Below are positions 1 to 12,873 of a DNA stretch of 64,000 nt, piece after piece. Numbering within the stretch: the stretch's first letter is position 1; the number at the start of each line of letters is the position of its first letter. This DNA comes from Halarcobacter sp. (lineage in GTDB: Bacteria > Campylobacterota > Campylobacteria > Campylobacterales > Arcobacteraceae), in contig CP182352.1 of assembly GCA_048571215.1 (NCBI GenBank), forward strand, positions 448,001 through 512,000. Reading direction: 5' to 3'. Below the pieces are notes generated by a model. The model did no database searches and was not told the origin of the DNA. It was given only the letters and a program-made list of their open reading frames with translations. Both the position numbers and the translations under genes were made by a program.

Positions 1-519
1 AATATAACCTTGCAATGGAGATCCGTTTGGATTACCAAATGCTTGCATGGGAGCTAAACTTAAAGAGGATGAGTCTCTTACTATTTGAAGAGATTCAATA
101 ATATCCGTAGGCAGTGCTTCTAAAATTCTCATAGCACTGTTGTCGCTTAGTAATGCCCCATCTAATATAACACCAAAGGCACTGCTTCCCACCCCATTTG
201 AACTCCCTCTAAATGAGATAGTATAAGGGTGCTTTCTTCCCATAAAAAGTACATTTACACTTTGAGCTTTACTTAAAATATCATATATATTAGCGGGTTT
301 AATCTTTTCAATCTCTTTTTGAGTAAAAATTTCTGTAGATAAAGATGAACTGGCTGTTGGCTCATTTGGGTTGTTCATCTGTTCATATGAGATATCATCC
401 ATTGTTTTTGTATTCATTTTATCAACAATATTAATTTGATCAATTTTATACTCTTGGGCGGCAAAAATTGACGTAACTATTAATGTACTTGCAATTAAGC
501 TTATATGTAATTTTTTCAT
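1..519 (-). CDS. TonB-dependent receptor, N-terminal part (runs off window start)
   Basis: Read manually, not in ORF track. ATG at 519 after an AGGA RBS. MKKLHISLIASTLIVTSIFA signal peptide, then plug-like sequence (EIFTQKEIEKIKPANIYDILSKAQSV...ISFRG...GVILDG...LPTDIIESLQIVRDS). Confidence 0.85.
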   Translation of the reverse strand, partial: MKKLHISLIASTLIVTSIFAAQEYKIDQINIVDKMNTKTMDDISYEQMNNPNEPTASSSLSTEIFTQKEIEKIKPANIYDILSKAQSVNVLFMGRKHPYTISFRGSSNGVGSSAFGVILDGALLSDNSAMRILEALPTDIIESLQIVRDSSSLSLAPMQAFGNPNGSPLQGYI

Positions 520-526
520 TTTTATC

Positions 527-985
527 CTATTGAATTAGTTGTATTTTTATATTTGTTAAGGCATAAACATGCCTAGGTCCTGTTAAAAAGTCTTTTTTTG
601 AATATAGAGAAAAACTCTCATTTTCATAGACCACAATAACCTCATTTCCAATAGTTGTATTAAACAGTTCGTTGTAGCTAAATACTACTGTATAGTTATC
701 ACTTGCAGTTGCTAAAACAACTATTTGATTGAGTTTTTTTCTACTTTTTATATCTATTTTTGCTTTTTGTATTAACTGTATTAATAAAACACCATTTAAA
801 TCTTTTGGTTTTTGTTTTTCTTCTCCTGATGCACAAACAATATTTACATTTTTTATTGTGCTGTGAGGAATTCTCTCAAATTCTTCTTTTGTTAATCTAT
901 AAGGTTCTTTTATTTGACCATTAACACTTAAAGATAAAGCGAAGATTTGTAAAGAAGTGAATAATAAAATTAAAAATATTTTCAT
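527..985 (-). CDS. Secreted molybdopterin-oxidoreductase (sulfite-oxidase fold)-like small protein
   Basis: Probable start MKIFL at 985 (ORF track 997). Signal peptide, then LSVNGQIKEPYRLT, VCASG, GVLL, ATASDNYTVVFSYNEL and GPRHV, which resemble the Oxidored_molyb domain. Confidence 0.6.
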   Translation of the reverse strand: MKIFLILLFTSLQIFALSLSVNGQIKEPYRLTKEEFERIPHSTIKNVNIVCASGEEKQKPKDLNGVLLIQLIQKAKIDIKSRKKLNQIVVLATASDNYTVVFSYNELFNTTIGNEVIVVYENESFSLYSKKDFLTGPRHVYALTNIKIQLIQ

Positions 986-1006
986 ATATAACTCCAAGTT
1001 TTTGTA

Positions 1007-2932
1007 TTAAAAAGTGTATTTCATATTTAAGAAGTATTCTCTTCCTGGCTCATAAAAACCTAAATCATAGTAATAGTTTTCATCAAATAAATTTTTAATA
1101 CCAGCTTCAAAAGTCATATCTTTGTAGTTATATGATATTTTTGTATCTACAGTTGTATAATTACTCTTATCATATGAATTATCTCTATATTGTAAATAAG
1201 TATCTCTATCATGTTTTATGTTTGCATAAATATATAAATCTTTTGTAATATCATATTTTCCATAAACAAAAAATGAGTGTTTAGGTAGACTAGTTCTAAT
1301 ATATCCACTATTATTTTTATCTTCAACATCTATGTATGAGTAATTAAGCCCTGATGAAAATTTATCAAAATAACTATTTAGTTCAAGTTCAAAACCTTTA
1401 TGTCTAAAATCTCCTACATTTTGATTTTGAGACAAGCCACCAACATTTACATTTTCAATTGCATCAGAATATTCTGAAAGAAAAACATTTGTTTTTACGT
1501 TAAAACTTGTGTTTATAAGGTTAGAGTATGAGATTTCATAATGTGTAGCTTTTTCTGCATCTAAATCTGGATTTGCCAAACCTGTACCCATTTTTTCAGA
1601 ATATCTCTCTTTCATTGAAGGGAGGTGTGTTTTTCTTGCAATAGTAAAACTTATTTTTTGTTGTTTATCTATATCATAAAATAGTCCAATTTGCGGGTTA
1701 AAACTATCCATGCTACCTATATTAAAAGTCCCATCTTCATCCCAAATTTTATCATCATCCAATCTATCATAACTGATACCAGTAACTAAAGTAAGTGAAT
1801 CATTTAAAGAGTATGTATCTTCAAGAGCTAGAGAGATTGTTTTATCTGCATAATCTTCATTTTTTATATTATTTTCATCAAAACCTTTATGGGAATCATA
1901 TTTATAATTAAAAGAGCTAACCAATTCGTGATGAGTAAAAGGCATACCAAACTCAATTGAAGTACCATAACTATAATCTTCATATCTACTTCCCCAAGTT
2001 ACTTTAGACCAGTTAGTTTTGTAATTTTCTAAATAATTATCAAATTTATCATAAAACCATCTAGTTTTTAAATAATTGTCTCCAATTTTATTATCTGTAA
2101 AGGCATAAAGTCCTTCTTTATCCCATTGGGGCCAATCCCAGTATCTTGCTCGGCTTAAAGAACTATCATCTATTGTTGTTGAAGCTTGTTGTTTTTTCCC
2201 ATCAATTTTAGAATACATAATCGCATATTCACTATTTTCATTTGGTGTTAATCCTGCTTTTATACTATATTTTTTATCGTTTGATGAAGAGTGGATTCTC
2301 TCTTGTGATGGCTGATTGTTTGTATAATTGAAATCATCTGATAAATTAAAATGGTCTTTATCTTTAAGGCTTCCAGAAAACTGAATATAATAATCTTTTT
2401 GATTTGTTCCTAAGTTGATTGAAGTTGTATATTGAGCTAAACCAAAGTCATTATCAAAAGTTGTGCCTATACTTATGTCACCTTCAAACTTTTTTGTTGG
2501 TTTTTTAGAAACTAAGTTTACTACACCTGCCATAGTGTTAGCTCCATATTTAACAGAAGAAAAACCTTTGTAAATATCTATTTTAGATAAATCTGCTGTT
2601 GTAAATCTTCCATAATCAAAATTTCCATCATATGGAATATAAATAGGGATACCATCCATAAATACAGCAACTCTTGTTGAACTGAATCCTCTTATTGAAA
2701 TAGTTTTTTCAGCTCTATTTCCACTATTTGATAAAAATAATCCTGTACTTGAACTTAAGGCTTCTGAAATATCTGTAAAATCATGTAGTTGAATATCTTC
2801 TGAATATATTTCAGTAGAGTTATTTACATCTATTTTCCCATTAATATCAATTTCCCCTAAGCTAAACTGTTCTATATCATTAGCATATAAAATTGATACT
2901 AAACATATTGAATAGATAATCTTTTTTTTCAT
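1007..2932 (-). CDS. TonB-dependent receptor
   Basis: Plug motifs SIRGF, VFMDGIP, IDIYKGFSSVKYGANTMAGVVNLV; NPDLDAEK; C-terminal KNLFDENY...PGREYFLNMKYTF. Confidence 0.95.
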   Translation of the reverse strand: MKKKIIYSICLVSILYANDIEQFSLGEIDINGKIDVNNSTEIYSEDIQLHDFTDISEALSSSTGLFLSNSGNRAEKTISIRGFSSTRVAVFMDGIPIYIPYDGNFDYGRFTTADLSKIDIYKGFSSVKYGANTMAGVVNLVSKKPTKKFEGDISIGTTFDNDFGLAQYTTSINLGTNQKDYYIQFSGSLKDKDHFNLSDDFNYTNNQPSQERIHSSSNDKKYSIKAGLTPNENSEYAIMYSKIDGKKQQASTTIDDSSLSRARYWDWPQWDKEGLYAFTDNKIGDNYLKTRWFYDKFDNYLENYKTNWSKVTWGSRYEDYSYGTSIEFGMPFTHHELVSSFNYKYDSHKGFDENNIKNEDYADKTISLALEDTYSLNDSLTLVTGISYDRLDDDKIWDEDGTFNIGSMDSFNPQIGLFYDIDKQQKISFTIARKTHLPSMKERYSEKMGTGLANPDLDAEKATHYEISYSNLINTSFNVKTNVFLSEYSDAIENVNVGGLSQNQNVGDFRHKGFELELNSYFDKFSSGLNYSYIDVEDKNNSGYIRTSLPKHSFFVYGKYDITKDLYIYANIKHDRDTYLQYRDNSYDKSNYTTVDTKISYNYKDMTFEAGIKNLFDENYYYDLGFYEPGREYFLNMKYTF

Positions 2933-2945
2933 TTTGTTTCCTTTT

Positions 2946-3959
2946 TTATATATTTAATATTTCATTAATTTGTTTAGATGTAAGTTCTTTCCCCATAAAT
3001 TTTTTATAGAATTTTTTAGTTTCATCAAACATATTTATATCTTTAAACTGTTCTGGATAAGCCTTTTTTGCAACCCATAAGATAGTTAAAACTTGTTCAG
3101 GAGTATAGTGTGTCCAAAAGTGTGCACCCATAGGCACTGCAAAAACATTTTTGTTTTTTACTGCTTTTAAGTCTTTGAATTTTGGATTGTTGTATGCTAG
3201 CTTTAAATCTTTTTTACCCCAAACAAAGAGATAATCTGGATTTAAAACAAAAAGTTTTTCCATATCAATTGATACATGCTCTTTGGTGATATGTTTTGAT
3301 GCAGCATCAACTCCTGCTTTTTCAAAAATAGTATTTGCAGTTGTTACCATGGGCATCGATAAGTTATCTAGTCTTAGATATAAAGCACTTTTTTTATTTT
3401 TTATATTAGTTGTTTTATCTTTAACAAGGTTTTCAATCTTTTCATAATAATTTATATACTCTTTTGCATGCTCTTGCATACCAAATAATTCACCAAGAAA
3501 ACTCATGCTATTTTTTATACTATTTTCTCCATGCCAATTTATTACAGCTGTTTTATAAGCTCTATTTTCCAAGTTTTTAGCACTAATTGGATTATTTACT
3601 AAAGCAATATCAAATTTTGTAAGAGCTAATTTTTCAAATAAAGGTGTCCATGTAGGTGGATTTGATGAAACTTGCGGAAGCTCAAAAAGTTTTGGCATAA
3701 ACCATTGTTGATGTTTCCAAAATGGCATCTTTCTTAATCTTTCATTTTCGATTCCATTTTGGATAATATCTGCTTTTTTAAAAGCAAATAAAAAAGCATT
3801 TATTGCAGGAGTTCCACCAACACTAACAATATTTTCAATCTTTTGAGGCACTATTATAGTTCTATTTGCCATATCTACTATTTGTTTTTCTTTTGCCAAA
3901 GCAAAACTGTTTACCATAAAAACAAAAAGTATTGTAAATAAAATATCAGACTTTTTCAT
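2946..3959 (-). CDS. Fe/B12/metal-chelate ABC transporter substrate-binding protein
   Basis: Signal peptide, DMANRTIIVPQKIENIVS, EKLFVLNPDYLF, LKAVKNKNVFAVP, AKKAYPEQF (Peripla_BP_2 pattern). Confidence 0.9.
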   Translation of the reverse strand: MKKSDILFTILFVFMVNSFALAKEKQIVDMANRTIIVPQKIENIVSVGGTPAINAFLFAFKKADIIQNGIENERLRKMPFWKHQQWFMPKLFELPQVSSNPPTWTPLFEKLALTKFDIALVNNPISAKNLENRAYKTAVINWHGENSIKNSMSFLGELFGMQEHAKEYINYYEKIENLVKDKTTNIKNKKSALYLRLDNLSMPMVTTANTIFEKAGVDAASKHITKEHVSIDMEKLFVLNPDYLFVWGKKDLKLAYNNPKFKDLKAVKNKNVFAVPMGAHFWTHYTPEQVLTILWVAKKAYPEQFKDINMFDETKKFYKKFMGKELTSKQINEILNI

Positions 3960-3961
3960 GA

Positions 3962-6178
3962 TTAGAACTTATATACCATACTAATTACAGCTGAAAAAGG
4001 TGCCCCTTGATAATAAGAGGTTGAACCAGTTCTTGTATCATCAAGGCTATTTTTTACAACACCAACATATTTCTTATTAAAAATATTTTGTAAGGCAAGA
4101 GATATCTCAATTTTGTCTTTTTTTAGTACATATTTAGAGTTTAAATCAAAAACAGTATATGAGTCAACTTTTTCACTGTTTTGGGCATCCCCATATCTTT
4201 TCCCTACAAATCTTGCTAAAGGAGTGATAGTAAAATTTTCATATTTTAAATTTACTCCAATCTTAGCACCAACTTTTGCTACATCAGGGATTTGATTATC
4301 TTTTGCATTTAAATAGCTATTTGTTGCCAATAAAATATTGTCATCAAACTCAAAATTGTTGTAATACATAGAAGCAAATATTGAAGAGTTCTCAGATAGT
4401 TTGTAATTTGTCTCTATCTCAGCTCCCATAGATGTAGCTTTAGCATCACTTTTATAATAACTTAGATTGATACTTGGGTCATAAACAGTAACTTGCTTAT
4501 TTTTATATTTGCCATAAAAAAGGGTATTTTTAATAGTAAAGTTATCTTTTGAATATTGAGTAAAGAACTCTATATTATCTGATGTTTCAAGTTTTAACTC
4601 ATCCCATAAATCTTGTAAACTTATACCAGCACCTTGAAATGTTGAAACATTTGAATTATATACAGACCAAAGTGGACCTTGCCAAGGGTTTGCATAGTTT
4701 CTTGCATATCCACCACCAATTTTCCAATTTGAGTTAAGTGTATGTTCTAACATCAAACTTGGTAAAAGTTCATTTGAACTACTAGAATTAACTTGCATAC
4801 CAGTTTTTATTCCACTAGTTGCACTCATTGCTTCATCATATGATAAATCTTGTAAGCCAGAAGTGTTATACCCTGTAACAGCAGGGAAATCAAACATCAA
4901 ATATCTTAATCCAGCATTTAAATAAGTATTACCAAAAGTTTTTTCATAGCCTATATATGGTGAGTTTGATACTCTATCATCAATATCTGTAAGCATACCA
5001 GTAGATGCATATTTTAAACTACCATCTGCTTGAATACTATAAACCTTCATAAGTTGAGGAGGTGGAGTAGATTGCATTTGTTGGTACCACCAACCTCCAT
5101 ATAAGTTTCCACCTGCTAATGGATGTTCCAATGAAAGACTAATACCATATGCCTCTTGTTCTATTTTCATCTGTTTTACAATACCTTTAGAAGCATCACC
5201 TTGGTATCTAGTACCTTCGCTTCCAAAAGTGTATGGTTTTAGTTTTATAGAAGTATCACCGATTTTCCCATTTAATGAAGAGTATATAAAATATTCATGG
5301 AAATCTTGTTTGTTAAAATCATAATATAAAGCATCTTTAAATTTATTTCCTGTAATTGAGGTGTTGTAATCTAGCTTATAGTTTTCACTTAGATTTTGTA
5401 TCTGTGAATATGATAAAGGCATATATTCATCTCTATCAAAACTATTATAAGTACCAAAAAACTCCATATCAAAGTTATCAGAGAGATCTACAGTTGTCAT
5501 AGCTTCAATATTTTTTCTTTTTATATCACCTTCACCTTTGTATTTATCATTTTCCATTGTAGAAGTTGAAATAAATAGTTTAACTTTGTCATTTATTTTT
5601 CCACTATCGATTCTTATATGAGCTTTTTTGAAACTATCAGTTCCTGCACCTAGTGATAGAGTTACTCCTGCTTTATCTTTTGGTTTTAAAAGTGATAAGT
5701 CCAATGAACCAGATGTGGTACCCAATCCCAAGCCTTTATTTGCAGGAGTAAGTCCTGTAGTAAATTCTGCTTGTGTTAAATTTTCTTTATCTACAATATA
5801 TCCTGTACCGCCATTTCCAACATTTACTCCAAAAGGAACACCCTCAATAGTTGAACTTAACCTACTAAAAGTATCTCCTAATTGTCCTCTGATTCTAAGT
5901 ATATTTTGATCAACTGTAAGAGCATATGGATCGTGGGTTTCTATATTTACAGAAGGGATAAGTTGCAAACTTTTAAAATAGTTTGTAGAACTTGTTCCTT
6001 GTAAAGACTCTAATAAATCTTTATTTATGATTTTACTTTGATTAGTATCGTTTAAATCATAAAAATAGTTTAACTTTGTAGCCTTTATATCTATTGGCTC
6101 TAGTTGGATATTCCCCTCTTGTGCTAGTAATAAACTGCTTGAATAGCCTATAAGTAAAATTGATAAGCTTTTTTTCAT
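3962..6178 (-). CDS. TonB-dependent receptor
   Basis: 738 aa with signal peptide, plug (LRIRG, IEGVP) and C-terminal QNIFNKKY...GAPFSAVISMVYKF. Confidence 0.92.
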   Translation of the reverse strand: MKKSLSILLIGYSSSLLLAQEGNIQLEPIDIKATKLNYFYDLNDTNQSKIINKDLLESLQGTSSTNYFKSLQLIPSVNIETHDPYALTVDQNILRIRGQLGDTFSRLSSTIEGVPFGVNVGNGGTGYIVDKENLTQAEFTTGLTPANKGLGLGTTSGSLDLSLLKPKDKAGVTLSLGAGTDSFKKAHIRIDSGKINDKVKLFISTSTMENDKYKGEGDIKRKNIEAMTTVDLSDNFDMEFFGTYNSFDRDEYMPLSYSQIQNLSENYKLDYNTSITGNKFKDALYYDFNKQDFHEYFIYSSLNGKIGDTSIKLKPYTFGSEGTRYQGDASKGIVKQMKIEQEAYGISLSLEHPLAGGNLYGGWWYQQMQSTPPPQLMKVYSIQADGSLKYASTGMLTDIDDRVSNSPYIGYEKTFGNTYLNAGLRYLMFDFPAVTGYNTSGLQDLSYDEAMSATSGIKTGMQVNSSSSNELLPSLMLEHTLNSNWKIGGGYARNYANPWQGPLWSVYNSNVSTFQGAGISLQDLWDELKLETSDNIEFFTQYSKDNFTIKNTLFYGKYKNKQVTVYDPSINLSYYKSDAKATSMGAEIETNYKLSENSSIFASMYYNNFEFDDNILLATNSYLNAKDNQIPDVAKVGAKIGVNLKYENFTITPLARFVGKRYGDAQNSEKVDSYTVFDLNSKYVLKKDKIEISLALQNIFNKKYVGVVKNSLDDTRTGSTSYYQGAPFSAVISMVYKF

Positions 6179-6191
6179 CTCTTCCCCTTTT

Positions 6192-6217
6192 CCTTGTATA
6201 ATTTAGTATATAACGAT
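6192..6217. promoter_or_regulatory. ModE-like operator (site 1)
   Basis: CCTTGTATA-ATTTAG-TATATAACGAT. The right half matches the ModE half-site fully. Lies just upstream of the 6178 receptor RBS. Confidence 0.65.
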
Positions 6218-6229
6218 AGATAAAAAAAT

Positions 6230-6988
6230 TTAGATTGCTAAACAGATCTTTCTATCATGTATATTTGTGATTTTTGATTTGATTTTATATACTGTCTCTA
6301 TATTTTCCTCTTTTATTATTGTGTGAGGATCACCTTTATCTAGTATTTTGCCTTCATTTAAAAATATTGCTTCATTTGAAACAAAAAATACGTGATCTGG
6401 ATAGTGGCTTGTTTTTATAAATGTTAAATCTTTTTTTGATAGCTCCTTTATTTTATTTAAAAGTTTATATTGGTTTCCAAAGTCCAATCCATTTACTGGC
6501 TCATCCATAATAAATATATCAGCTTGTTGAGTAATTGCTCTTGCAATTAGTACTAGTTGTCTTTGACCACCACTAAGTGTAGTATATATCTCATCTTTTA
6601 GATCTTGTATTCCTAAAATCTCTAAAGCACTCATAGATATTTTTTTATCTTCTTCATTGTAATTTGAAAATAAAGATTTATATGGCATTCTTCCCATCAT
6701 AACAACATCTTTTACCAAATATCCAAATGCTCCATCATGGATTTGTGGAATATAAGCTACTCTTTGAAAGAATTCTTTTGGCTTTATTTTTGATATAGGC
6801 TTATTATTAAAATATACTTCACCCTTCGAAGGTTTTAAAAATCCCAATAATATTTTTAATAAAGTGGTTTTTCCACAACCATTTGGACCTAAGATAGAGA
6901 TAATATCAGATGAATTAATCTCAAAATCCAAACCCTTTAAAATCTTTTTTTTACCATATGAAAACTCTAAATCTTCAACTTTAAACAT
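6230..6988 (-). CDS. Metal-chelate ABC transporter ATP-binding protein (FecE-like)
   Basis: Walker A GPNGCGKT, LSGGQRQ, IMDEP. Probable ATG at 6988 overlaps the permease stop (TAATG). Confidence 0.95.
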   Translation of the reverse strand: MFKVEDLEFSYGKKKILKGLDFEINSSDIISILGPNGCGKTTLLKILLGFLKPSKGEVYFNNKPISKIKPKEFFQRVAYIPQIHDGAFGYLVKDVVMMGRMPYKSLFSNYNEEDKKISMSALEILGIQDLKDEIYTTLSGGQRQLVLIARAITQQADIFIMDEPVNGLDFGNQYKLLNKIKELSKKDLTFIKTSHYPDHVFFVSNEAIFLNEGKILDKGDPHTIIKEENIETVYKIKSKITNIHDRKICLAI

Positions 6989-7983
6989 TAACCCCATCCT
7001 TTTTTTACATTTTTAAGAGCATAAGCAAAAAATGGAATCCCAATAAGTGAAGTTAATATACCTATGGGTATCTCTACACTAAATAGTGTTCTTGATACAT
7101 TATCAATAATAAGAAGATAAATTGCACCAAGAAGTGCAGATATTGGTACAATGATTATATTATTTGAACCAAACAATAATCTTGCAATGTGTGGAATAAC
7201 TAATCCCACCCAACCAATCATTCCTGCTAATACAACAGTAAAAGCACTTATAAATGTAGCTATTAAGATAATTACAAATCTCATAAGTTTTACATTTACA
7301 CCTAAACTTTTAGCTTCCTCATCACCTAAGCTTAAAATATTAAGATATTTTGATAAAAATATCATCAAAAATATACCTAATAAAATAGGGATTGTAACTA
7401 TATAAATTGTTTGTTTATCAATCAAAGCTAAACTACCCATAAGCCAATAAACAATTGCAGGTAATTCATCATATGGGTCAGCCATATATTTTGTTATAGA
7501 CAACATTGAACTAAAAAAAGCTGAACTTACAACTCCACCCAAAATTAGAAGGATTAATTGATTTTGTTTGTTAAACATTGAGATAAATAGAGCAATAAAA
7601 ACAGCTGATATTCCAAATACAAATGATGAGGTTTGGATTAGCAAGAAGTCTTTAAAAAATATCATCCCCAAAGCAGCTCCAAAAGAAGCACCTGATAGCA
7701 CACCTAAAATACCTGGCGAAACCAAAGGGTTTTTAAACATAGATTGAAAAGCTACACCAGAGATTGCCAGTGAAGCTCCTATTAATACAGATGCAACAAC
7801 TCTTGGAAATCTTATTTCAATAATTACATTTTGCATCACTTGTGAGTTTTCTATTGAACCAAAACCTAGTTTAAATAGAAAAAAATTGATAATTTGACTA
7901 ATAGATAAGTCATATTGCCCTAATGATAATGAAAAAATAGACAATAGAATAAGTAAGGTTAATAGTACTAAAATCGATTTCAT
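6988..7983 (-). CDS. FecCD/BtuC-family ABC permease
   Basis: IRFPRV, FKNPLVSPGILGV, GDEEAKSLGV, GWVGLVIPHIAR, EIPIGILTSLIG. Confidence 0.95.
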   Translation of the reverse strand: MKSILVLLTLLILLSIFSLSLGQYDLSISQIINFFLFKLGFGSIENSQVMQNVIIEIRFPRVVASVLIGASLAISGVAFQSMFKNPLVSPGILGVLSGASFGAALGMIFFKDFLLIQTSSFVFGISAVFIALFISMFNKQNQLILLILGGVVSSAFFSSMLSITKYMADPYDELPAIVYWLMGSLALIDKQTIYIVTIPILLGIFLMIFLSKYLNILSLGDEEAKSLGVNVKLMRFVIILIATFISAFTVVLAGMIGWVGLVIPHIARLLFGSNNIIIVPISALLGAIYLLIIDNVSRTLFSVEIPIGILTSLIGIPFFAYALKNVKKGWG

Positions 7984-7984
7984 A

Positions 7985-8896
7985 CTACAAACTTTTTAAA
8001 ATTTCATTTGAAAAAAGTTTTAAAGATTGTTTGTTTTTTTCTAATTCATTTGAAATCGGTTTTAATGCTAAATTAGTTATTCCTAACTCTTTTAATTGAT
8101 GGATTTTTTCTAAACAGGTTTTTTTATCTCCTATTATTCCATTTTCTATCCAATAGTTTTCATCATAAAAAATAGGACTAGAAATACCTTGTTGTTCCAT
8201 TTGCTCTCTAAACCTTTTTAAAGCTGGTAATGCTTCATCTATAGCTTCATCATTGCTACTTGCCATATAAAAACCTCTTGAACACATTAATCTTGGAGGA
8301 TTATTTTGTTTATGGGCGTTTTTGTACTGTTCAATCATCTTTTTAATAATATCAGTAGACCATAAATGAGCAACCATAAGCCCCAAATCTCTTTGGGCTG
8401 CAAAACTTATAGATGTTTCATCTTTTGAAGCTATAAATGTCGGAATATTGCCAATAGGTTTAGGGAATACAGCACTGTCATCTTTTAGATATGAAAATAT
8501 CTCATCTAGGTCTTGTAACATATGTTCCCGCGAGTTTTCGAAATCAAATAATTCATTTTGTTTGTTAAAGGGACCACCTTTTGCAACGCCAAAATTAAAT
8601 CTATTGTTACTGAGTATATTTAGTGTAGCAACTGCCTCAGCAACTATGATTGGGTTGTAAATAGGAGTTAGTACAGAAGCTGTACCAACTCTTATTCTTT
8701 TTGTTGTTGCAATGATATATGCCATAAGAGTCAAAATTGATGAGCTTAAACTAAATTTATTAAAGTGGTGTTCCGTAATCCATACTTCATCTAAACCTAA
8801 TTGTTCACCTAGCATAATCATTTCGTGTTGATTTTCAAAAGCTTTTGTAAAATTGTCACCCCAATTCTCATATAAAAGCATTAATCCTATATTCAT
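7985..8896 (-). CDS. LLM-class flavin-dependent oxidoreductase (luciferase-like monooxygenase)
   Basis: VWITEHHF, TTKRIRVGTA, NPIIVAEAVATLNILSNNRFNFGVAKG. Confidence 0.9.
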   Translation of the reverse strand: MNIGLMLLYENWGDNFTKAFENQHEMIMLGEQLGLDEVWITEHHFNKFSLSSSILTLMAYIIATTKRIRVGTASVLTPIYNPIIVAEAVATLNILSNNRFNFGVAKGGPFNKQNELFDFENSREHMLQDLDEIFSYLKDDSAVFPKPIGNIPTFIASKDETSISFAAQRDLGLMVAHLWSTDIIKKMIEQYKNAHKQNNPPRLMCSRGFYMASSNDEAIDEALPALKRFREQMEQQGISSPIFYDENYWIENGIIGDKKTCLEKIHQLKELGITNLALKPISNELEKNKQSLKLFSNEILKSL

Positions 8897-8918
8897 CTTC
8901 TACCTACTTGCAATTTTT

Positions 8919-8955
8919 CGTTATGTATTGTAATATATAGCGGTGAAAAAGTCAA
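8919..8955 (-). promoter_or_regulatory. ModE-like operator (site 2) overlapping the sigma70 promoter of the LLM-permease-ATPase operon
   Basis: CGTTATGTA-TTGTAA-TATATAGCG at 8919-8942. Minus-strand TTGACT (8955-8950), 17-bp spacer, TACAAT (8932-8927). Confidence 0.75.
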
Positions 8956-9014
8956 CAGTTAAATATATAAAAATTGTATATAAAATATACATTTTTAAGA
9001 AAAAAGGAGTAAAA

Positions 9015-9974
9015 ATGAGGATGTTAGTGTTTTTTATGTTGATTATTGGGAGTGTTTATGCACAATCTAGTTTAAAAGTTTTTGGTGCTTCGCCACCTGC
9101 AACATATTTTTTGTATTCTATTGATCCACAAGCAATAGCTGGAAGAAATTATGCTTTTAACGATAAAGAGTTGGAATATCTAAATAAAGATATAAATAGT
9201 TTGCCTATTATTGGAGGGTGGTTTGGTCAAGGCAGAACACCAAACTTTGAAACTTTGATTAAAGTAAATCCAGATTTGATTATTACATGGAACTATAACA
9301 ATAGTTTTAAAAAAGTTGATGACAAACTACATAGTTTGGGATTTAAAACTTTTAGTATAAATATTAATTCTTTAAATGATTATATAGAAGCATATAAAGA
9401 TGTAGGTGAGATTTTACATATGCAAAGTAGGGCAGAAAAACTCTCTAATTATGTTGCAAATACAATGAAAGAATTAGAAGTTTTGAAAAAAAAGGTATCA
9501 ATAAAAAAAACAGTTTATTATGCAGAGGGGATAGATGGTTTGCAAACAGAGTGTAACAACTCAATTCATGCAGATTTGATTGAATATATAGCAGCTTATA
9601 ATCCCCATAGATGTGAAAACAAAGCAGGTTTTGGTAGAGATAGAATAAGTTTAGAAAATTTGATGATATATAACCCTGATATTATTATCACACAAGAGAA
9701 AAACTTTTTTGATAATGTATACAAAAATGAAAAATTACAACATATAAAAGCAGTAAAAAACAAGAAAGTATATTTCATACCTAAATCACCATTTAGTTGG
9801 TTTGATAGACCACCTTCGTTTATGAAAGTTTTAGGTGCACAATGGTTGGGAAATCTAGTTTATAAAGATATTTATAATATAGATATAAACCAAAGAATAA
9901 AAGAGTTTTACAAACTATTTTTAAATATTTCATTAACAAATGAAGAAGTAACAAATTTATTAGAAGGAAAATAA
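9015..9974 (+). CDS. Metal-chelate ABC substrate-binding protein
   Basis: ATG 9015 follows AAGGAG (ORF track 8943). PIIGGWFG, NFETLIKVNPD, YYAEGIDGLQTEC, FSWFDRPPS. Confidence 0.9.
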   Translation: MRMLVFFMLIIGSVYAQSSLKVFGASPPATYFLYSIDPQAIAGRNYAFNDKELEYLNKDINSLPIIGGWFGQGRTPNFETLIKVNPDLIITWNYNNSFKKVDDKLHSLGFKTFSININSLNDYIEAYKDVGEILHMQSRAEKLSNYVANTMKELEVLKKKVSIKKTVYYAEGIDGLQTECNNSIHADLIEYIAAYNPHRCENKAGFGRDRISLENLMIYNPDIIITQEKNFFDNVYKNEKLQHIKAVKNKKVYFIPKSPFSWFDRPPSFMKVLGAQWLGNLVYKDIYNIDINQRIKEFYKLFLNISLTNEEVTNLLEGK

Positions 9975-9976
9975 TT

Positions 9977-10714
9977 ATGGAAAAATTTTGGGATTTTAAA
10001 TCAAAAAACTATCCAACAGCAATGGATGAAAATGGTTTGGTTACACCAAATAAAGTATTAACAAAAGTAAAAGATTTTGGTGTAGATTTTAAATCAAAAA
10101 GTGTTTTAGATATAGGTTGTGGGACAGGATTATATAGCTCTATTATTTCACAAGAAGCAGACAATATCTTAGGTGTTGATATATCAAGTGGGATGTTAGG
10201 AAGGTTTGAAGAGTTTATACAACTGAATAAAATTAAAAATATAGAATTAAAAAAAACAGATTTTAAAGAGTTTGATACAAAAGAACAATATGATATTGTA
10301 CTTTGTGCTATGACTCCTGCAATAAGCTCTTTTAGTGATCTAGATATAATGATAGATTTAGCAAAAGAGAGTTGTATATATGTTTCTTTTTCAAAAGATA
10401 GACATAGCCCAATTATGGATGATATCCTTACAAAACTAGGATATCCAAATAAAATGAAAAATAAATTTTTTGATACTAAAGAGTATATAAACTCTTTAGG
10501 ATACCAGACAAAAGAGGAGTTTTTTGAACACAATTGGTCACAAGAAGGAACTTTGGATGAGATAGCAAATGATGTATTACAACATTTAAATTTGCGAGAT
10601 ATAAAAATTGATATTTCTCAAATAAAACAGTTATTAAAAGTTTATGAAAATGATGGAAAAATAGTAAGAGAAACCTTTTCAACTATAGGAGTATTGGTTT
10701 GGGATAAAAATTAA
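9977..10714 (+). CDS. Class I SAM-dependent methyltransferase
   Basis: Motif I VLDIGCGTG, GVDISSGML, YDIVLCAMTP. Confidence 0.9.
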   Translation: MEKFWDFKSKNYPTAMDENGLVTPNKVLTKVKDFGVDFKSKSVLDIGCGTGLYSSIISQEADNILGVDISSGMLGRFEEFIQLNKIKNIELKKTDFKEFDTKEQYDIVLCAMTPAISSFSDLDIMIDLAKESCIYVSFSKDRHSPIMDDILTKLGYPNKMKNKFFDTKEYINSLGYQTKEEFFEHNWSQEGTLDEIANDVLQHLNLRDIKIDISQIKQLLKVYENDGKIVRETFSTIGVLVWDKN

Positions 10715-10738
10715 GAAGATACATAAGTATCTTCTTAA
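10711..10738. terminator. Hairpin between convergent genes (probable bidirectional terminator)
   Basis: TTAAGAAGATAC-ATAA-GTATCTTCTTAA, perfect 12-bp stem. Confidence 0.7.
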
Positions 10739-11775
10739 AAAGAGCCTTTTGTAATCTCTTTTAACTCTTCATTTGTTAAGTTTTTGTGAAAAAATAGCTT
10801 ATAAAAATCTTTTGTCTCTTGATTTATATCTTTTGTATAATATTGTGGATAAATAAGAGAACTTAACCAATGAATACCCAATAGTCTCATAAATGAAGGT
10901 GGTCTATCAATCCAGTTAAAAGGAGTTCTTGGTACTAGAAAAACCTTTTTTTGTTTTACGGCATTTAACATTTTCCATTTTACACTTGTAAATATATTTT
11001 TAAAAAATTTTGGTGATTGAACTATTATAAAATCAGGATTTGCTTTTAAAATAGTTTCAAAACTAAGAGTTTCCATACCCATAATATCTTTTTGTAAACA
11101 TTCATAGATATTTTTAGCTTTTATAAATCTAAATTGAGTTGTATGAAAAGAGTTTGAACAATCACTTTGTAGACCATTTACCCCTTGAGCATAATAAAAT
11201 GTTTTTTGATTTGTCTCATTTATATTTGAAGAGATTTTTTTTATGTAATCCAAGCTTGATTTAGCATAATTAGATAATTCTTTACCTCTGTTTGGCAGAT
11301 CAAATAATTCTCCTAAAAAGTTAAATGTTTCTGGCATTTTTTCTAAGTTATCCGCATCAACCATTACAATTGGGATATCAACTTTTTTTAAACTTTTATT
11401 TACTTTTTTTAATAAAAAGTCATTTTTCCATGATAGAATCATTTGGGCATGTACACTTAAAAGTTTTTCAATACTTGCACCTTTTTGATTCCCATGCCAA
11501 CCACCTAGTATTGGAAGATTCATAAAATCTTCACCAACATACTCATTTGAAGTAAAATTGTTTTGATTATAAGCAGGGAAATTTAGACCAACTAAAAGTT
11601 TGGGATTATACAGCGAGACTAAAAATGTTGTAGGTGGAGCTGAACCAAAAACTCTTTCAATTTTATCTGGAAGAGTTATTGTTTCTCCACTCATATCTGT
11701 AATGTTTTTTGAAAATAGATTTGATAAATTTAGTAAAAAAATAACTAAAAAAACAAATATTGATTTATTTTTCAT
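10735..11775 (-). CDS. Metal-chelate ABC substrate-binding protein (paralog of 9015..9974)
   Basis: TDMSGETITLP, SAPPT, PILGGWHG, YYAQGVNGLQSDC, FNWIDRPPSFM. Confidence 0.9.
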   Translation of the reverse strand: MKNKSIFVFLVIFLLNLSNLFSKNITDMSGETITLPDKIERVFGSAPPTTFLVSLYNPKLLVGLNFPAYNQNNFTSNEYVGEDFMNLPILGGWHGNQKGASIEKLLSVHAQMILSWKNDFLLKKVNKSLKKVDIPIVMVDADNLEKMPETFNFLGELFDLPNRGKELSNYAKSSLDYIKKISSNINETNQKTFYYAQGVNGLQSDCSNSFHTTQFRFIKAKNIYECLQKDIMGMETLSFETILKANPDFIIVQSPKFFKNIFTSVKWKMLNAVKQKKVFLVPRTPFNWIDRPPSFMRLLGIHWLSSLIYPQYYTKDINQETKDFYKLFFHKNLTNEELKEITKGSF

Positions 11776-12359
11776 TTTTTCTCCTCAAATTCGTGGGCAA
11801 TATTTTCATAAGGGTATCTTTTTGGAGCCTCCATCATAGTTCTTCTATTAATCATACGCAAAGATAAAGATTCTATCCATTCCCAAAATGGTTTTATATA
11901 CTCTTTAGGAAAATCTATATCTTTCAGAGTTTTTTTGTAAAACATAAGCCAAACATCTCTAGCATGTTCATCTATTGTAAATGGAAAATGTCTTGAGCGA
12001 AGGTGTGGATGTCCATGTTTTGAGCTATATCTTGAACCACCACCTAAGGCTTCCATAAAAAATTCTGCTGTCCTTTGTGTAACCATTTCAAACTCTTTTT
12101 CATCTTGTGAAAAGATATCTTTTATGGAACTGTTTTTTAATAATCCATGATGATGGAAAACCATTTTGATAATATTTTTTTCTCCAAACTCTTCATAAAT
12201 AGTTTTAGGAGGAAATGGCACTGGTGGGTAGATAAAATCAATCATAATATCTTTTACACCATTTGGGTCAAATTTTTGACTGATATCACATTGACTGAAT
12301 TTTTTGATTTCATCTAAGGGTTCATGTCTTAGATTTATAAATGAATGTTTATTGTTCAT
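11772..12359 (-). CDS. Group II truncated hemoglobin (GlbO-like) with N-terminal extension
   Basis: EFFMEALGGGSRY, HGHPHLRSRHFPFTID...RDVWL. ATG 12359 follows AAGGA. 4-bp overlap with the next gene. Confidence 0.85.
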   Translation of the reverse strand: MNNKHSFINLRHEPLDEIKKFSQCDISQKFDPNGVKDIMIDFIYPPVPFPPKTIYEEFGEKNIIKMVFHHHGLLKNSSIKDIFSQDEKEFEMVTQRTAEFFMEALGGGSRYSSKHGHPHLRSRHFPFTIDEHARDVWLMFYKKTLKDIDFPKEYIKPFWEWIESLSLRMINRRTMMEAPKRYPYENIAHEFEEKK

Positions 12360-12418
12360 TTTTTTTCCTTTACTTAAATTTAAAGCGAAAAAAAACAAGT
12401 AAGTAAAGTAATGAACAA

Positions 12419-12450
12419 CGTAGTATATTAAAATATATAGCGTTTGTCAA
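12419..12450 (-). promoter_or_regulatory. ModE-like operator (site 3) overlapping the sigma70 promoter of the globin-SBP operon
   Basis: CGTAGTATA-TTAAAA-TATATAGCG at 12419-12442. Minus-strand TTGACA, 17-bp spacer, TATACT. Confidence 0.75.
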
Positions 12451-12534: not shown

Positions 12535-12873
12535 CTATTTTGTTCCTAAAATGTAATAAACAGGTTTTTTATCAAGTTTTTGTAAGTCAACATTGTATTT
12601 ATCTGCCCAGTTATTAACTTCATCATGAAACTCTTCTAAAATCTCTTGTGCATCGTTTTCATCACATTTGATTTTAAGGTACTCAGATGAGTTTGATAAT
12701 CCAACATAAGCATTCATCTTTTTTAAATTGTCATTTAAACTTATTAGATGTTTAGAAAATTTTTCAAAATCTTTTGTTTGTTCCATAATAACTTGGGCTT
12801 GTTTTAATGATGTATCACTTTTTGTGTAACCAAGTTGTGAAAGTAAAACTTCCGGTGAAACTTCTAAATGCAT
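12535..12873 (-). CDS. Hypothetical protein
   Basis: 112-aa ORF with a strong AAGGAG RBS; no motif recognised. Confidence 0.75.
   Translation of the reverse strand: MHLEVSPEVLLSQLGYTKSDTSLKQAQVIMEQTKDFEKFSKHLISLNDNLKKMNAYVGLSNSSEYLKIKCDENDAQEILEEFHDEVNNWADKYNVDLQKLDKKPVYYILGTK

Follow-up and report, generated by a model that had tools for sequence, protein, structure and literature searches.

A conserved cluster of TonB-dependent receptors under predicted ModE control in Halarcobacter, with a possible role in the uptake of complexed molybdenum or tungsten

We analyzed a stretch of 64,000 nucleotides (the window; G000:C1:448001–512000) from the genome of a Halarcobacter sp. (G000; G and L labels denote the genomes and loci compared). 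The genome is complete, with a size of 3.61 Mb and a G + C content of 28.5%. At the left end of the window lies a gene cluster that very likely belongs to the ModE regulon, and for which we propose a role in the acquisition of molybdenum (Mo) or tungsten (W). The genes listed in an earlier reading of this DNA (the original prediction) were all found: three TonB-dependent receptors (TBDRs), three substrate-binding proteins, one permease/ATPase pair, a luciferase-like flavin monooxygenase (LLM), a methyltransferase, a globin and a mini-protein. The cluster proteins were 94–99% identical to those of Halarcobacter/Arcobacter metagenome-assembled genomes.

On the minus strand, the cluster runs from ModE box 3 over the globin and the binding protein S3, through the region of box 2, to box 1 and the receptor operon. 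The first gene of this operon is the receptor T1 (3962..6178), followed by the class III binding protein S1 (PF01497; 2946..3959), which travels with T1. Then come the receptor T2 (1007..2932), a homolog of E. coli ECs1693/PrrA, and the mini-protein of 152 amino acids (aa; 527..985). The latter has the sulfite-oxidase fold (PF00174), a Sec-type secretion signal and a Cys at the Mo-ligand position, and it is PruR-like in size and fold. The receptor T3 (664 aa as a whole) is cut by the window edge, with its 5' part at 1..519; beyond the edge, in a part that the original prediction had not covered, the cluster continues with exbB, exbD and tonB (G000:C1 445004–446515). Box 2 lies between two divergent groups. 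On the plus strand, these are the class III binding protein S2 (PF01497; 9015..9974) and a class I S-adenosylmethionine methyltransferase (9977..10714). On the minus strand, they are the LLM (PF00296; 7985..8896), which scored below all subfamily cut-offs, a type II permease of the FecCD family (6988..7983) and an ATP-binding cassette (ABC) ATPase of the FecE/MolC type (6230..6997). Upstream, also on the minus strand, are a truncated-globin-like protein (PF01152; 11772..12359), whose subfamily is specific to these clusters and has an invariant His-His pair, and S3 (PF01497; 10735..11775), a paralog of S2 (36%). Matches of the receptors against the PDB were limited to plug or barrel-end similarity, and the ESM Atlas gave only generic TBDR clusters. 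No RNA family was found within the window by Rfam.

The original prediction had quoted a 24-bp motif in each of three intergenic control regions, and all three were confirmed without change, at 6192, 8919 and 12419. Box 1 (6192..6215) lies 13 bp before the start codon of T1, box 2 (8919..8942) in the gap from which LLM-permease-ATPase and S2-methyltransferase diverge, and box 3 (12419..12442) upstream of globin-S3. They had one or two mismatches to the ModE operator consensus CGnTATATA-N6-TATATAnCG, as printed in a passage of PMC545781. Sites with at most two mismatches numbered seven in the 3.6-Mb genome, versus one to four in each of three shuffles; three of the seven were boxes 1–3 and two preceded modE. 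When the genome was scanned with a matrix from the three window sites, the best intergenic matches were a site before mop/modG and the two modE sites. The matches at 2480202, 2172228, 1010014 and 2422052 were rejected as regulon members, because they are inside genes. A second matrix was trained on 11 boxes that precede modE in other genomes; these had been chosen with a matrix including the window's own sites, so that this test is not fully independent. It placed boxes 1–3 at ranks 1, 4 and 6 in G000, and the two modE-upstream boxes at ranks 2 and 3. Boxes 1 and 2 (scores 22.1 and 21.0) were above the best match of five shuffles (20.6), and box 3 (17.1) was below it. The identity of box 3 is thus based on its position and conservation, not on its single-site score.

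Two of the boxes, 2 and 3, coincide in part with sigma-70 promoters on the minus strand, an overlap that the original prediction had not noticed. At box 2 the promoter is TTGACT-N17-TACAAT (8927..8955), with the −10 element within the box. At box 3 it is TTGACA-N17-TATACT (12422..12450), with the box covering the spacer and the −10 element, and TTGACA was kept in six of six aligned genomes. No clear −35/−10 pair was recognized at box 1. The claim that the three gaps lack a Fur-like box held: the best matches reached 10–12 of 19 positions, whereas a site before a different TBDR gene of G000 matched at 16 of 19. A NikR-like pattern was also not found in these gaps.

ModE-like proteins control mod and tup genes in Campylobacter. 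In G000 we found a full-length ModE of 261 aa, with a winged helix-turn-helix (HTH) domain (TIGR00637, 106.6, above the cut-off of 98.5) and two Mop stretches. Its gene heads modA-mop-modB-modC-modA2-modB2-modD, directly after nifHDK, and has two boxes (G000:C1 3027017–3037413). A lone mop/modG gene with its own box is at G000:C1 856770–857309, so that the motif stands upstream of both modE-modABC and mop/modG. The cluster is very likely a part of the ModE regulon, with a predicted repression by ModE-molybdate.

The Mo demand of this genome is high, and its N2 fixation has no Mo bypass. One nifH and one nifD were found, pointing to the lack of an alternative nitrogenase, and moaA was accompanied by five or six matches to molybdopterin oxidoreductases. 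Free-oxyanion importers are already present, with two ModA and WtpA. In a further comparison of the 151 genomes of the Arcobacteraceae family set, S2-type proteins occurred in 23 and T2-type receptors in 22. The proposed co-occurrence with nif stood as an enrichment, nifK being found in 13 of the 22 T2 genomes versus 54 of the 151 overall. A strict dependence was rejected, as nine of the 22 T2 genomes were without nifK.

Homology searches indicated that the core of the cluster is not unique to G000. Because related genomes and loci are not independent, the conservation figures given here are counts and not statistics. In all seven relatives that were fetched with the window's layout, the three boxes were at matching positions. 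Across six genomes, the identity was 0.89–0.93 in the box arms, versus 0.45–0.74 in the flanks. Five genomes (G009, G127, G031, G134 and G095) had a one-receptor cassette directly after modE-modABC, with its own box. Relatives of T1 were found in 19 of 400 genomes across Campylobacterota. The 21 T1 loci inspected comprised regions from 18 of these 19 genomes and one metagenome locus, the sole T1 match of the metagenome scan. Boxes were found in 15 of the 21, with 46 sites scoring at least 14 versus 1.2 in shuffles, and the boxes often lay within mod operons, among modE, modA, modG and modD. With a ModE in the genome, the motif at mod promoters and the boxes conserved in orthologous clusters, the regulatory half of the original prediction is strongly supported; none of its computable tests turned out against it.

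The six box-less T1 loci (L120, L121, L122, L128, L129 and L132) formed one separate clade, with a FastTree support of 100. Three of them had NikR-like sites upstream, and the members of this clade are possibly nickel receptors. Rfam searches on these six loci and on L001 gave only tRNAs.

Outside the phylum, in other Proteobacteria, we counted 17 loci with T2, excluding three distant matches. A strong box just upstream was present in eight, a weak box in two, and only adjacent mod genes in two, which makes some Mo link in 12 of the 17. No Moco/Tuco riboswitch was found by Rfam in six box-less or weak-box T2 loci. In a betaproteobacterial variant (L056, L065, L066, L070, L072 and L073), what follows T2 is an orphan binding protein of the SBP_bac type with a di-haem DHOR (PF06537) protein, in place of the type II ABC transporter; L066 has both. 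In genomes of the Hydrogenovibrio/Thiomicrorhabdus type, genes for SoxA-like proteins, cytochromes c and metallo-beta-lactamases immediately follow ModE-type boxes beside the uptake cluster (L058:19141–21115, L061:5486–8445 and L063:9358–12083).

The prrA-modD-yc73-fepC island of E. coli (ECs1693–ECs1699 in O157:H7 Sakai) was detected in 2140 of the 5426 complete genomes of this species. T2 and ECs1693/PrrA shared 29% identity over 613 aa (1e-78), and the island homologs of the permease (ECs1698), the ATPase and the binding protein 40%, 33% and 24%. A ModE-type box with a score of 21.5 was found just upstream of ECs1699, at the head of the island.

As the original prediction had anticipated, relatives of the cluster are annotated as iron uptake genes (“iron complex outermembrane receptor”). 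For the E. coli island, PMC12928451 gives iron uptake as a possible function. If iron or nickel chelates were the cargo, the ModE boxes would either raise the Fe/Ni supply or be incidental; the NikR-like sites in the T1 paralog clade and the resemblance of S1 to a nickel-binding protein would agree with this. We regard such a function as very unlikely for the cluster. Its three gaps had neither a Fur-like nor a NikR-like site, its receptors scored below the cut-offs of all iron- and siderophore-receptor families (NCBIfam), and the boxes are conserved across families. In addition, ModE would shut the genes with Mo present, just when nitrogenase needs iron.

A candidate second operator was found in nine Arcobacteraceae loci (L050–L052 and L078–L083), in which T2 is not preceded by a ModE box. 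This subtype adjoins tupABC, wtpABC or moeA: tupA was present in six of the loci, and several had wtpA and moeA. Immediately before T2, or before the operon that holds it, there was a palindrome, TATGCAAA-WW-TTGCATA, with zero to two mismatches in seven of the nine loci and three mismatches in the other two. The sole perfect copy in G000, AATATGCAAA-TT-TTGCATATT, is outside the window, at C1 2350243. It is followed by fdhD, a short ModE with the HTH alone, moeA and wtpA(BC), beside a formate dehydrogenase. The short HTH-only ModE-like protein is a candidate for binding this palindrome, as a tungsten branch of the control. One receptor family (T2) is thus predicted to be governed by two separate Mo/W-linked operators, which is the best argument for a functional link to Mo or W.

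The gene content of the clusters was modular. In the locus table (34 boxed loci with a permease; the six T1 paralog loci that have no box, and most loci that have no permease, are not part of it), an LLM was found in 27, a methyltransferase in 19 and a globin in 18. Three modules were gained or lost together: T1 with S1; S2 with the methyltransferase and the LLM; and T2 with the mini-protein. Such a modularity fits several cargos. The His-His pair was present in the window globin and in all 21 cluster globins from other loci, whereas two globin paralogs elsewhere in G000 had FY or HY there. A protein of 243 aa with a DDTD motif at the N-terminal end was found between T2 and the binding protein in ten loci, one of them L042 (2502–3233). 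It had a weak match to methanogenesis marker 11, and we take it to be TiaS-like.

Systems that combine class III binding proteins, FecCD permeases and TBDRs mostly import metal chelates. This argues against a Mo-sparing response, in which ModE would derepress the uptake and breakdown of a metal-free nutrient (e.g., organic N or S) to replace the supply by Mo enzymes. The position of the cassettes among modA, modB, modC, modG and modD, and among tup, wtp and moeA genes, and the Mo-ligand Cys kept by the mini-protein also do not fit with it. For such a response speak the boxed SoxA-like genes in related loci, and the monooxygenase and the methyltransferase, which are enzymes typical of catabolism or tailoring. 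Moreover, ModE represses Mo-free alternatives in A. vinelandii, according to a passage of PMC9542535. On balance we consider a Mo-sparing role unlikely.

For the mini-protein, the window copy matched PF00174 with an E value of 0.004, below the cut-off, and nine of ten aligned members matched it, the best with 1.6e-11. Sequence searches against the PDB, from one sequence or from 10 rows, gave no match. The AlphaFold model had a predicted local distance difference test score of 87 from a 90-row alignment, and 43 from the single sequence. It was closest to SoxC (Z 13.7, root-mean-square deviation (rmsd) 2.7, 123 aligned), followed by PruR 7rkb (Z 12.6, rmsd 2.2, 116 aligned), with the next unrelated fold at 6.4. 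The Cys was conserved in 74 of 90 homologs. In the alignment to sulfite oxidase and nitrate reductase, it fell in their Mo-ligand Cys region, and GPRHVKWL fell on their GxRSVKWL. A twin-arginine translocation (Tat) motif was found in none of 120 homologs, the leader being of the Sec type, so the mini-protein is probably exported empty. In the locus table it was never present without T2 (13 of 13).

The three binding proteins all matched MolA, with E values of 4e-11, 1e-12 and 8e-10, the last for S1. MolBC-A of H. influenzae is a type II importer for molybdate and tungstate, as described in a part of PMC4245157. The cluster could therefore be a high-affinity route for free molybdate or tungstate, with receptors that concentrate the bare oxyanion where it is very scarce and an ABC transporter that works like MolBC-A; the control by ModE would be the same as for modABC. 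S2 and S3 were far closer to a structural-genomics entry, 4PAG (1e-65 and 1e-86), which is their closest solved structure, than to MolA, a distant match; a ligand of 4PAG was not found in the literature. The MolA ligands K221, R264 and Y301, named in a part of bioRxiv 10.64898/2026.10.15.759412, are not kept in S3, which has Ser, a gap and Asp at the corresponding places, in a mapping from a weak pairwise alignment (E 1e-12) with an inferred numbering offset that could not be made for S1. S2 shares the states of S3 at these positions, and 41 members of the S2/S3 family keep two Cys, S-x-H and W-x-D-x-PPS. S2 and S3 fail the test for the MolA pocket, as far as this alignment goes, and the system may still serve Mo like MolBC-A. 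With ModA, ModA2 and WtpA already in the genome, and with the three receptors and the recurring enzymes left unexplained, a route for the free oxyanions appears improbable to us.

Bacterial Mo uptake is taught as a porin plus ModABC. We hold a role of the cluster in Mo/W acquisition with moderate confidence. Our preferred reading, which we consider more probable than not, is that it scavenges complexed Mo or W across the outer membrane, with the metal bound to a carrier of organic or sulfur nature. When Mo is plentiful, ModE-molybdate would bind the three boxes and block the promoters. When Mo is short, four transcription units, together with a dedicated ExbB-ExbD-TonB, would be switched on. 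Three TBDRs and three class III binding proteins, numbers which suggest several cargo molecules, would then feed the one type II ABC transporter. The cargo would be Mo or W on an organic or sulfur ligand not made by the cell itself. The secreted mini-protein would hold Mo/pterin species in the periplasm. In the cytoplasm, the methyltransferase and the LLM, perhaps with the globin as an O2/redox partner, would modify the ligand, which is the weakest step. The metal would thereby be released for the synthesis of the iron-molybdenum cofactor (FeMo-co) and the molybdenum cofactor (Moco). A chelated or organic Mo/W cargo with dedicated processing enzymes, as in the original prediction, is plausible; the combination of a complexed cargo with an enzymatic release is weakly suggested by these genes.

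Several observations weigh against an uptake of complexed Mo or W. The presence of moaA indicates that G000 makes its own Moco, so that an import of Moco would be for the metal and not for an auxotrophy. The mini-protein was found in only 13 of the 34 boxed loci with a permease, and its window copy reads VYAL for VKWL, with the conserved K and W lost. Its family begins after the segment of the enzymes which bears further pterin contacts. S1 was closer to a nickel-binding protein of H. pylori (E 2e-13) than to MolA. Neither a box nor a mod gene was found in five of the 17 T2 loci outside the phylum. The boxed SoxA-like genes indicate that ModE also represses genes that import no Mo. The NikR-like sites of the box-less T1 clade and the weak mapping of the MolA residues belong here as well.

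Regarding the nature of the cargo, we tentatively put first a pterin-dithiolene, i.e., Moco or its breakdown products. T2, the Cys-bearing mini-protein and an S2/S3-type ABC transporter could then be an import route for Moco itself, its W form or its breakdown products, shed by other cells, and the methyltransferase and the LLM would open the dithiolene for the metal. If this tentative idea were true, bacteria would trade Moco as a metal source, among them the ~40% of E. coli with the island. Azotobacter takes up Mo by catechols. For our cluster, foreign catechol or humic chelates are a somewhat less likely cargo than the pterin-dithiolene. A self-made metallophore from a non-ribosomal peptide synthetase (NRPS) or an NRPS-independent siderophore (NIS) synthetase was rejected for G000, as no NRPS or NIS domain was found, other synthesis routes not having been searched. 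Thio-ligated Mo is the least likely of the three cargos; it would fit the many sulfur oxidizers among the hosts, which is an impression from their habitats.

Directly beside the cluster, at 12535–12873 of the window, there is a conserved 112-aa protein without a Pfam match, which also flanks the cluster in several relatives. It probably does not belong to the cluster, as it stays when the cluster moves. Elsewhere in G000, a single open reading frame of ~37 kb (C1 3195873–3233075) had more than 12,000 codons.

The cluster is real, conserved and mis-annotated, and its known parts were not found in print under this control and with this likely cargo. No ModE-controlled TBDR and no TBDR for Mo/W complexes was found described in the full-text literature, in a search weakened by hits of “ModE” on the word “mode” and limited to literature outside subscription. 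The accessible parts of PMC5343134, PMC11672702 and PMC4245157 make no mention of either. How diazotrophs and users of W enzymes obtain Mo or W from organic- or sulfide-bound metal becomes directly testable with this cluster, which supplies named receptors, binding proteins and enzymes together with a predicted switch, and whose hosts are non-pathogenic and can be grown in culture. A family filed as iron uptake, including the E. coli island, would be re-annotated.

Among the known systems, the prrA-modD-yc73-fepC island has a PrrA-type receptor, an ABC transporter and a binding protein homologous to the core in the window. The window goes beyond this with three receptors and as many binding proteins, a TonB set of its own, the LLM, the globin and the mini-protein. 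In turn, modD and the yc73-type methyltransferase are not in the window operon: modD is in the mod operon, and a yc73-type gene stands alone at G000:C1 139816–140616, with 48% identity to the cassette type of the relatives. The methyltransferase of the window is of a different subfamily than yc73, and in several relatives modD and a yc73-type gene are adjacent. With the ModE regulon and ModABC, the cluster has in common the operator, a full-length ModE and boxes over promoters; the targets in the window are TBDRs, a type II ABC transporter and enzymes, not a type I ModABC. The nearest precedent is a set of three TBDR/ABC operons of A. vinelandii that, according to a part of PMC9542535, are active only when Mo and V are lacking. 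These class B operons of VnfA1/VnfA3 share with the cluster a TonB receptor with an ABC transporter and, as predicted for the cluster, an expression upon a lack of Mo (there of Mo and V). Their control is indirect, via sigma-54 activators, versus the direct control by ModE predicted here.

MolBC-A (HI1470–1472) shares with the cluster a type II FecCD permease, a class III binding protein and a link to Mo. It differs by its distance (E 1e-9 to 1e-12) and by the three MolA ligand residues absent in S3; no outer-membrane step is mentioned for it in the accessible part of PMC4245157, whereas the window cluster has TonB receptors. The molybdoenzymes of the SUOX family have the fold of the Moco domain and the Mo-ligand Cys in common with the mini-protein. 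They are full catalytic subunits exported folded by Tat, and the mini-protein has 152 aa and a Sec-type leader. PruR, like the mini-protein, is a small, secreted, stand-alone SUOX fold. It binds metal-free pterins, as reported in parts of PMC11194511 and PMC13259868. In PruR, a Trp replaces the Mo-ligand Cys, and the protein pairs with DcpA signaling proteins (described in a part of PMC11194511). The mini-protein of the cluster keeps the Cys, and its neighbor is a TonB receptor rather than a DcpA-type protein.

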